A stretch of DNA of 64,000 nt, taken from the sequence record PQ765507; one strand, given 5' to 3'. A model generated the notes under the pieces. That model was given only the letters and a program-made list of their open reading frames with translations, searched no databases and had not been told where the DNA came from. Positions 43,372-44,773 of the stretch are shown here, in pieces. Numbering within the stretch: the first letter of the stretch is position 1; each line of letters starts with the position of its first letter. The translations under genes were made by a program, and so were the position numbers. The stretch comes from Escherichia phage 212.

Positions 43372-43641
43372 ATGAAAACGTATCAAGAATTTTTGGCTGA
43401 ATCTGTATTAAATGAATCAGATGAAAGCCGCATGGCATTTTTAGCTAAGAAAGAAGGCTTTGAGTTTACTTCTATTAAAAAAGTTAATGGAACTTCATTT
43501 AAAGTTGGTGATTGGACCTTTGGTAACAAAGGAAATGGCCAGTGGCAAATTGTAGATAAATCTGGCAAAGAAGTGGATTATTTGTTTAATCAGAAATTGG
43601 GTGATATCGCTAAACTTATGGGTCAATACTCTAAGAAATGA
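43372..43641 (+). CDS. internal-protein-like protein with CTS
   Basis: N-terminus MKTYQEFLAE. Confidence 0.6.
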   Translation: MKTYQEFLAESVLNESDESRMAFLAKKEGFEFTSIKKVNGTSFKVGDWTFGNKGNGQWQIVDKSGKEVDYLFNQKLGDIAKLMGQYSKK

Positions 43642-43679
43642 TGTACATCTCCAAACGATAGGGTTATAATGACCCTATC
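43642..43679 (+). promoter_or_regulatory. early promoter with stem-loop over the -10 upstream of denV
   Basis: TGTACA/GTACAT -35-like, 17 bp spacer, TATAAT in the loop of 8 bp stem GATAGGGT/ACCCTATC. Confidence 0.55.
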
Positions 43680-43696
43680 AACTACGGAGAACAAAC

Positions 43697-44104
43697 ATGA
43701 CTCGCATTAATTTAACCCTGGTATCTGAACTTGCTGACCAACATCTTATGGCTGAATATCGTGAGCTTCCTCGCGTTTTTGGTGCAGTTCGTGAACGTAT
43801 TGCCAAAGGGCAGGGCTTCTCTGATATCCCTAAAGACTTCCGCCTTGGTTCAGGGCACGTCAAGTTCTTTTATGACAAAATTGGATTTTTGTTCTTGCGA
43901 CAAAATGCAATAATTAAGGAACTTCTGAAGCGTGGTTATCAGATTCAAAATACCCATGTAAATGTAGCGGATATTCCATTACGGCTCATGAACGATTTCA
44001 CTCCAACCGAAGCTGATATAGCTTTAAGCCAAGCTCGTCTGGATGAAAAAATTTCTCAAAAACCTACCTGGTACAAATACTATGGGAAAGCTGTGTACGC
44101 TTAA
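43697..44104 (+). CDS. denV: endonuclease V (pyrimidine dimer DNA glycosylase)
   Basis: 135 aa; N-terminus [32 protein letters not shown] and C-terminus [11 protein letters not shown] match T4 DenV. Confidence 0.9.
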
Positions 44105-44152
44105 CTAAAAAGGTTGTATAATGATTTTATCAACCAAACAATGGAATATAAA

Positions 44153-44416
44153 ATGAAAACTTATCAAGAATTTATTACTGAATCTGCCAAAGCTCCTGCT
44201 GGTTCCTTTAAAGTCCGCGCATTCGCTGGTGATGCTGAAGACTTTGGCACCATGAAGCGCAATGGTTATTCTTTCTTTGGCGGCGATGGTAAAGAAATTG
44301 TCACCTATGCAAAACGTCGCGAAATCGCATTCGTGGTTGCTGGTAAGAAAGTTGATGTTGACGATATTGAATGGGACTTTGAGACCTTTGGTATTGTTTC
44401 TGGCGGTAAAGCATAA
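44153..44416 (+). CDS. internal-protein-like protein with CTS (paralog of 31351..31650)
   Basis: N-terminus MKTYQEFITE from ATG 44153; the track ORF begins at an upstream TTG. Confidence 0.6.
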   Translation: MKTYQEFITESAKAPAGSFKVRAFAGDAEDFGTMKRNGYSFFGGDGKEIVTYAKRREIAFVVAGKKVDVDDIEWDFETFGIVSGGKA

Positions 44417-44418
44417 CT

Positions 44419-44456
44419 GTTTACTTTTTGATGGGATAGTGCATAATTATCCCATC
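44419..44456 (+). promoter_or_regulatory. early promoter with stem-loop over the -10 (PeSL-like)
   Basis: GTTTAC, 17 bp spacer, CATAAT in the loop of perfect 9 bp stem GATGGGATA/TATCCCATC. Confidence 0.6.
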
Positions 44457-44473
44457 AATTTGGAGAGAATAAA

Positions 44474-44773
44474 ATGAAAACTTATCAAGAATTTATCACA
44501 GAAGCCAAAGCTCCTAAAGCATTTCAAATTGGAGTCCAGGGCAATTTAGACCAACAATATGTTGACGCTATTGTCGCAAGCCTCGGTAAACAAGGTGTAC
44601 AAGTGGATTTGGTTGATTTTACTAAAGGTAATACTTTTAATATTGTCACATCTAAAGGTTCTTTAGCTAAAGTTAAAAAGGCTTTTGGTGTAGCACAAGC
44701 ATATGAAATTGACCATTCTGAATTAGAAAATAAAGGTCGCCAGAACACAATTAAAGGTTCTGGTTCTTTCTAA
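44474..44773 (+). CDS. internal-protein-like protein with CTS
   Basis: N-terminus MKTYQEFITE. Confidence 0.55.
   Translation: MKTYQEFITEAKAPKAFQIGVQGNLDQQYVDAIVASLGKQGVQVDLVDFTKGNTFNIVTSKGSLAKVKKAFGVAQAYEIDHSELENKGRQNTIKGSGSF

Follow-up and report, generated by a model that had tools for sequence, protein, structure and literature searches.

Two loci of candidate internal-protein genes in a Gaprivervirus genome, with an old paralog pair divided between them

The internal proteins (IPs) of T4-related phages are diverse and have only a capsid-targeting leader (CTS) in common; in T4 they are tethered to the scaffolding core, cleaved by gp21 and injected (PMC3012670, PMC9026906). The ten residues of the T4 CTS suffice on their own for the packaging of foreign proteins, and amber-suppressor mutagenesis of IPIII showed that positions 4 and 7 govern targeting and positions 8 and 10 govern processing (PMC9026906). 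[quoted passage not shown] In T4, ipI lies after 57B, and ipIII and ipII lie between e and denV. The two Ip loci, the CTS and the shuffling of cassettes are already known, having been described since 1994, and the T-even variants Ip4 to Ip10 are known from Repoila et al. 1994 and Comeau et al. 2007, as far as these are recounted in PMC2839356 and PMC12373910. According to PMC2839356, which puts the number of IP variants at more than 30, promoter/stem-loop elements at the two IP loci were likewise described by Repoila et al. 1994. The genes for the prohead protease gp21 and for the scaffold core (gp22, gp67 and gp68) are counted among the core genes of T4-related phages (PMC9026906), and the closest relatives of the phage considered here are Tevenvirinae.

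The window, by which we mean the whole stretch of 64,000 nucleotides of Escherichia phage 212 DNA that was analyzed (PQ765507), matches the DNA of Gaprivervirus phages (Straboviridae, Tevenvirinae) at 93-99%, namely Shigella phage SP18 and the Escherichia coli phages VR7, CJ20, UPEC07, PSD2001 and P479. The phage is a Gaprivervirus and, like SP18, VR7 and CJ20, of the T4 type. Seven genes, designated A to G in their order along the window, all sit within two Ip loci, and very probably encode the CTS-led internal proteins of this T4-type genus: A to D form the first locus, between 57B and the tRNA genes, and the second, which runs from e through denV to vs.8, has E, F and G as its cassettes. 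The features of the first locus are as follows.

30213-30668, + strand: gene 57B, directly preceding the ORFs of locus 1
30663-30728, + strand: promoter-like element upstream of A, hairpin arms 30680-30686 and 30701-30707
30729-31061, + strand: IP candidate A, 110 aa, MSIKTYNEFLAE and then I-N-E; VR7ORF156c, 'hypothetical protein'
31070-31342, + strand: predicted IP gene B, 90 aa, MKTFNEFFNE and then L-N-E, Ip9 homolog
31351-31650, + strand: predicted IP gene C, 99 aa, MQTFHEFLVE, paralog of F
31657-31713, + strand: promoter-like element upstream of D, hairpin (GATGGGATA...TATCCCATC)
31714-31992, + strand: IP candidate D, 92 aa, MKTYQEFINE, phrog_15565; VR7ORF153c, 'hypothetical protein'
31993-32050, + strand: promoter/hairpin copy, arms 32000-32009 and 32021-32030, closing locus 1 before a tRNA.4-like ORF

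The second locus comprises the following features.

42872-43363, + strand: gene e (lysozyme), left border of Ip locus 2, 99-100% amino acid identity to gene e of SP18, UPEC07 and CJ20
43372-43641, + strand: predicted IP gene E, 89 aa, CTS MKTYQEFLAE; phrog_8765, 'internal virion protein'
43640-43696, + strand: promoter-like element upstream of denV, hairpin arms 43657-43667 and 43669-43679
43697-44104, + strand: denV (endonuclease V), a divergent allele, between E and F
44153-44416, + strand: predicted IP gene F, 87 aa, CTS MKTYQEFITE, RB69 ORF125c family, paralog of C
44153-44187, + strand: 35-nt CTS-coding repeat ATGAAAACTTATCAAGAATTTATTACTGAATCT, identical throughout, crossover site for the loss of Ip10
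44417-44473, + strand: promoter-like element (TTTACT-16-CATAAT) upstream of G
44474-44773, + strand: predicted IP gene G, 99 aa, CTS MKTYQEFITE, Ip7 homolog
44897-45481, + strand: vs.8-like gene

The preliminary description of this DNA had placed three ORFs, at 43372, 44153 and 44474, on either side of denV and had given their common start as MKTYQEF(L/I)(A/T)E; both the coordinates and the N termini are correct. For F the ATG at 44153, which is the annotated start in relatives, was taken, the mechanical ORF list having begun at TTG 44114. The proposal that these ORFs form a second cluster of capsid-targeted internal-protein genes is supported by the CTS residues, by the position in an Ip locus and by annotated homologs. 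Gene e has the same position as T4 e, and the leaders of E, F and G depart in one or two residues from that of T4 IPII and IPIII, MKTYQEFIAE. The (L/I)-x-E cleavage motif, the distribution over two genomic loci and the mature size and charge (compare IPI* and IPII*) are shared with the T4 IPs as well. In contrast to T4, the order of genes is e-IP-denV-IP-IP rather than e-ipIII-ipII-denV, there are seven IP genes rather than three, and the mature domains lack detectable similarity to IPI, IPII and IPIII, no match of a mature domain to T4 Ip1, Ip2 or Ip3 being better than E = 0.1. The count of seven, which the preliminary description had set against three internal proteins plus Alt in T4, is right, but it is ordinary for the genus: in VR7 the CTS ORFs number eight, of which locus 1 holds five and locus 2 three. 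From the Ip4-Ip10 variants, of which G corresponds to Ip7 and B to Ip9, the genes of the window do not differ in kind, and their cassettes are likewise bounded by promoter/stem-loop elements.

A six-frame scan of the window for M[KQ]T[YF]xEF found exactly six of the seven ORFs and nothing else, A being offset by two residues; the same scan of 100 shuffles of the window gave a mean count of 0.0. All seven leaders have T3, E6, F7 and E10, with Y or F at position 4 and a hydrophobic residue at position 8, and the residues that are decisive in the CTS of IPIII are thus kept in every one of the seven N termini. The motif (L/I)-x-E occupies residues 8-10 in six proteins, E, F and G among them; B has F-N-E at 8-10 and L-N-E at 13-15. 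The preliminary description had named as its refuting case that the N-terminal similarity reflects only a shared translation-initiation cassette and that the proteins are not packaged. On such a reading the common N terminus is a mobile piece of DNA that serves translation initiation or recombination, and the proteins are early cytoplasmic accessory proteins that stay out of the capsid. The CTS-coding DNA does serve as a recombination substrate, it is nearly identical among D, F and G, and early-promoter-like elements lie ahead of several of the genes. However, the similarity starts at the ATG and stops at codon 10: the mean pairwise nucleotide identity of the seven genes is 0.77 in codons 1-10 (30 nt), as against a background value of 0.34 in the 30 nt upstream, where the ribosome-binding leaders lie, and 0.32 in the 30 nt downstream of codon 10. 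Within the CTS there are synonymous differences (ACT/ACG, TAT/TAC, GAA/GAG, TTA/TTG and ATT/ATC) and conservative replacements that keep T3, the aromatic residue 4, E6, F7, the hydrophobic residue 8 and E10, and A, B and C, in which the CTS has diverged in DNA, retain the exact targeting and cleavage residues. The restriction of the nucleotide similarity to codons 1-10, together with the synonymous and conservative nature of the changes, argues for selection on the peptide and not on a translation-initiation region, and the ability of the same ten residues to package foreign proteins in T4 also speaks against a mere DNA cassette. We regard that reading as very improbable, and the sequence thereby answers the earlier reservation in part; as to packaging, a literature search for a virion mass-spectrometry report on any Gaprivervirus found none.

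The annotation of relatives agrees with an assignment of these genes as coding for targeted internal proteins. Five of the seven have homologs that public records or PHROGs class as internal head or virion proteins, the labels in SP18, VR7, S16 and PHROGs being Ip7, Ip9 or internal head/virion protein. In the second locus, E, F and G are 97-100% identical to genes already deposited, and each has a homolog annotated as an internal head or virion protein in at least one RefSeq record. E is 100% identical to genes without a name in UPEC07, TH55, TH44 and DK-13; its orthologs with 60-78% identity are labeled 'internal virion protein' and adjoin gene e where the annotation was listed (Pectobacterium PM2, Enterobacter, Kosakonia and Edwardsiella phages and E. 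coli UP19), those of Serratia and Erwinia being listed without neighbors. F is 100% identical to VR7ORF127c ('similar to RB69 ORF125c'; RefSeq 'internal head protein') and to its counterpart in PSD2001, and 72% identical to RB69 ORF125c itself. G is 100% identical to SP18 gp122 and 97% to VR7 ip7 ('similar to T2 internal head protein Ip7'). In the first locus, B matches phrog_7673, 'internal head protein', with E = 1.7e-56, its counterpart being VR7 ip9, annotated 'similar to RB32 Ip9', and C corresponds to VR7ORF154c, which bears the note 'similar to RB69 ORF125c'. A and D carry the CTS, yet are labeled 'hypothetical protein' in those records of relatives that were examined. Scans of all seven proteins against Pfam and NCBIfam gave nothing above threshold, and Rfam gave zero matches on 43300-45000.

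By analogy with T4, the leader of each protein would bind it to the scaffolding core during prohead assembly, and the prohead protease gp21 would recognize the (L/I)-x-E motif and cut behind Glu10. A, B and E have a further (L/I)-N-E site five residues on, which in E comprises residues 13-15, after the CTS, and gp21 may make an additional or an alternative cut there. With this site the propeptides of A and E, which have the extended sequence ES.(I/L)NE in common, may be longer than ten residues, as in T4 IPI (19 residues). If the T4 scheme applies, the mature proteins would remain with the packaged DNA and then be injected along with it, and in the host cell they would most likely disarm host defenses. 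Packaging, cleavage, injection and anti-defense activity are, for all seven proteins, inferred from these parallels; what is observed directly comprises the sequences with their paralogy and synteny, the polymorphism of the cassettes and a single recombination joint. The predicted mature parts have masses of 8.3-10.7 kDa, and five of the seven are basic, with pI values of 9.1-9.6 and 11-15% lysine; those of F (pI 6.2) and B (pI 6.8) are not.

This composition bears on the possibility that the proteins are packaged but structural, with a role in charge neutralization or in the organization of condensed DNA instead of anti-defense. Five lysine-rich mature parts with pI above 9 fit such a role, and in T4 the lysines of internal proteins contact DNA phosphates in the head (PMC3012670). 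However, F and B are near-neutral or acidic, the T4 Ip genes are described as non-essential and all three have specific anti-restriction targets (PMC12373910), and the extreme turnover of cassettes among close relatives fits an arms race better; a purely structural role appears improbable. The seven proteins are likely to be injected anti-defense proteins, whereas an identity as GmrSD inhibitors is only possible. Gaprivervirus is reported to have neither hmC transferase nor the known glycosyltransferases, its DNA modification being called unknown, although it keeps dCTPase, denA, denB and alc (PMC8056088, PMC12115623). The genus thus reportedly lacks the hmC pathway whose product the targets of the T4 Ips attack. 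Because the hmC transferase is reported absent, the role of GmrSD inhibitor is not simply transferable from T4, and the seven or eight presumably injected proteins of these phages cannot all guard glucosyl-hmC DNA against GmrSD. Some of them might conceivably inhibit other defense systems, or type IV enzymes that sense a still unknown base, although we hold this only tentatively. The best candidates for inhibitors of targets other than GmrSD would be the family of C and F, with its orphan alpha/beta fold and more than 200 phage records, and the e-linked family of E.

C and F are related beyond the leader. BLASTP aligns their mature parts over 61 aa at 37.7% identity (E = 5e-14, 50 bits), and an all-versus-all comparison of the seven proteins and T4 IPI, IPII and IPIII with leaders removed gave no other pair better than E = 0.1. 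The pairwise alignment of mature domains that the preliminary description had proposed as a check therefore leaves C/F as the sole significant pair. The mature-domain signature proposed for the proteins at 44153 and 31351 was roughly right and is better written GDAEDF....(K/R)NGY.F...IAF...GK...DF..(Y/F)G(V/I)..G.K; the core of the family alignment is GDAEDF....(K/R)NGY.F...IA(F/Y)...G.K...DF..(Y/F)G. F and C are the two members of the RB69 ORF125c family in the window, C being the one in locus 1. It had been suggested that an internal-protein body was duplicated and moved between the loci. The paralogy is real and split over the two loci, and the suggestion is right, but the event is old and did not take place in this phage. 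That the paralogs sit in different loci of one genome would suit a recent duplication and transposition in this lineage, with the loci exchanging bodies now; the identity of C and F, however, is only about 35-38%, and both paralogs co-occur, in two places per record, in Gaprivervirus and in Salmonella phages of the genus Gelderlandvirus, where each has orthologs of 74-78% identity (78% for the F type, 75% for the C type). In Salmonella phage S16 the F type (gp70.1) adjoins vs.8, and the C type (gp78) comes immediately after 57B. RB69 and other members of Mosigvirus have a single family match, in one place, with an identity of about 72% to F but only about 32% to C. The low identity of C to F, the Gelderlandvirus orthologs and the same two loci in S16 indicate that the split predates these genera. 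A recent origin is scarcely credible in the light of these comparisons, and on sequence grounds the C/F duplication is judged to be ancient, with one copy per locus. The paralogy has been implicit in the public record from about 2010, since in the VR7 record ORF154c and ORF127c are both noted as resembling RB69 ORF125c.

The C/F family has a match in 208 phage records. In an exhaustive profile search of 1.84 billion representatives, the matches were CTS-bearing phage proteins apart from large proteins with IPT/TIG repeats, which were rejected as repeat artifacts because they matched in multiple stretches with an hhalign probability of 2.4%; they are also ruled out by fold, TIG being all-beta and the C/F model alpha/beta. 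AlphaFold2 modeled both F and E with confidence: the model of F (mean pLDDT 85) is a small beta-alpha-beta sandwich with a low-confidence leader, and that of E (pLDDT 81) has an alpha-beta5-alpha fold. Foldseek with the F model found nothing in the PDB at E <= 0.001, the hits being generic ferredoxin-like folds with TM < 0.5, and only family members in BFVD; a sequence search of the PDB with the C/F profile gave IF3 and myoglobin at chance level (E above 0.05), and these were discarded. Two further relationships were considered and rejected. Although phrog_2667, 'internal head protein', groups C, F and G, hhalign aligns only 11 CTS columns of G (Ip7) with the C/F family. A and E do not form a second cross-locus pair, their match beyond the extended propeptide being not significant (E = 0.14).

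The cassettes are separated by five copies of a promoter/hairpin element, which lie at cassette borders across the two loci. In each, an inverted repeat runs between and around promoter-like -35 and -10 hexamers, so that the spacer and downstream flank form a hairpin. The copy ahead of G has perfect 11-bp arms at 44428-44438 and 44448-44458 (TTGATGGGATA-9 nt-TATCCCATCAA) with CATAAT in the loop, followed by a GGAG leader; the copy ahead of denV has TATAAT in the hairpin loop and the leader ...CTATCAACTACGGAG. The elements are followed by a shared leader, TATCCCATCAACTAC…GGAG, and the TATCCCATCAACTAC motif has 9 matches in the window against 1.8 expected; at A, GGAG stands 6 nt ahead of the ATG at 30729. 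As judged from sequence, the elements appear to be PeSL-like promoter/stem-loop borders of cassettes. The PeSL cassettes of RB49/phi1-type phages also have a -35/-10 pair interleaved with an inverted repeat and repeated at borders in hyperplastic regions, but the T-even IP elements are analogs and not homologs of the PeSLs, their stems being AT-richer and without polyG (PMC2839356). The GC-rich spacer at 44770-44900 folded no better than its shuffles (z = 0.31).

The literature and public annotation already cover the CTS, both loci, the varied mature domains, the shuffling and the C/F paralogy, and the analysis adds little in that it re-derives a textbook feature of T4-type phages from raw sequence. 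What was not on record before is minor: the particular mosaic of the window and, as far as the examined records of relatives go, the presence of the CTS on A and D. The value of the set lies in cataloguing, the seven intact CTS-tagged proteins being reasonable candidates for screens of injected anti-defense proteins.

The mosaic, which combines E, a foreign denV allele, F and G and lacks Ip10, is not covered to at least 80% by any deposited genome. The denV protein is 64% identical to those of five Gaprivervirus relatives, 95.6% to that of E. coli phage LHE83 and 89% to those of Klebsiella T4-like phages. Comparison with the ip loci of T4-like phages, another check proposed in the preliminary description, shows the same two loci with varying cassette content, and among six relatives locus 2 varies in cassette content only. 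The orders of genes in locus 2 are as follows.

Window: e, E, denV, F, G
UPEC07: e, E, denV, G
PSD2001: e, IpII-like, denV, F, G
CJ20: e, IpII-like, denV, Ip10, F, G
SP18 and VR7: e, denV, Ip10, F, G
T4: e, ipIII, ipII, denV

Unlike the window, CJ20 and PSD2001 have a T4-IpII-like gene at the position of E, and both Ip10 and Ip6 occur in relatives at these loci. These patterns suggest that cassettes are gained, lost and exchanged as the loci evolve, with the CTS-coding repeats of about 30-35 nt and the intergenic promoter/hairpin elements as the presumed recombination substrates. In SP18, Ip10 and the F ortholog share their first 35 nt, ATGAAAACTTATCAAGAATTTATTACTGAATCT, and in the window the F body follows directly on the leader that stands before Ip10 in SP18 and CJ20 (…CAACCAAACAATGGAATATAAA). 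The window thus shows a precise loss of Ip10 by a crossover inside the 35-nt CTS repeat, and this CTS-to-CTS deletion joint is a tidy illustration of the reshuffling of the locus. A joint of the same kind is present in UPEC07, where the Ip10 leader is joined to G, with the loss of Ip10 plus F.

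The body of denV, the gene between the internal protein (IP) genes E and F of locus 2, is, judged by its identities, a foreign allele. The gene lies at:
43697–44104, + strand, denV with the foreign-allele body.
Its product has 64% amino acid identity to the denV proteins of five close Gaprivervirus relatives, and the flanking regions are 95–100% identical to the same phages. Its identity to the alleles of Escherichia coli phage LHE83 is 95.6% and to those of Klebsiella T4-like phages 89%. Despite the divergent body, the first 31 residues match the Gaprivervirus relatives, a pattern suggestive of recombination inside the gene that exchanged part of one allele for another.

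Two features follow IP gene G at the right border of locus 2:
44774–44896, non-coding spacer that separates G from the vs.8-like ORF, unusually rich in G+C.
44897–45481, vs.8-like ORF to the right of the locus, polymorphic among the relatives.
A search of the spacer against Rfam gave no match, and its predicted folding was no better than that of shuffled sequences (z = 0.31). The vs.8-like ORF has 95% identity to its counterpart in PSD2001 and 62% to that in CJ20, but only 36–38% to those in SP18, VR7, and UPEC07. Because this ORF is also polymorphic, the variable zone reaches past the IP cassettes.

The leader TATCCCATCAACTACTGAGGAG is, at the sequence level, common to the IP loci and to genes beyond them, as it recurs exactly at another site:
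50690–50745, region with a copy of the leader, preceding a 67-residue ORF (50746–50949).
A promoter-like site, GTTTAC...TACTAT, lies upstream of this copy, in which the left arm of the hairpin is missing.

In locus 1, the first IP gene has homologs in two related records (L008 and L009, the latter from SP18), where it is annotated with an earlier start:
30696–31061, ORF A with the start annotated in the relatives.
This ATG (MFLHQRTNGVKM...) is 11 codons upstream of the one at 30729 and falls within the hairpin/−10 element; GGAG is found 6 nucleotides 5′ of the downstream ATG. The upstream start is therefore likely to be a misannotation, one that masks the capsid targeting sequence (CTS), MSIKTYNEFLAE. 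The mature part of ORF A contains an internal repeat, VFFQIGNERFQTS and AYFKIGDEQFIMS.

The family of paralogs C (locus 1) and F (locus 2) has members elsewhere:
L009, 1080–1334, SP18 gp154, an ortholog of C entered as a misc_feature.
In that record gp154 has neither a start nor a CTS; the locus 1 paralog seems to have decayed in SP18. The metagenomic protein P0030 (194 residues) has a CTS, a domain of this family, and then ∼100 additional C-terminal residues; possibly, two IP bodies are fused behind one leader.

The remaining features lie on either side of locus 1:
30213–30668, 57B homolog, immediately upstream of the locus.
32711–32944, tRNA cluster, situated between IP loci 1 and 2.
In one related record, an "anti-CBASS protein Acb1" is annotated at some point within the matching region. 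T4 57B is Acb1, and the label may therefore belong to the 57B homolog of the window; if so, the IP cassettes are directly adjoined by an anti-defense gene. The tRNA cluster encodes only three tRNAs (Met, Asn, and Arg), whereas the corresponding cluster of T4 encodes eight.
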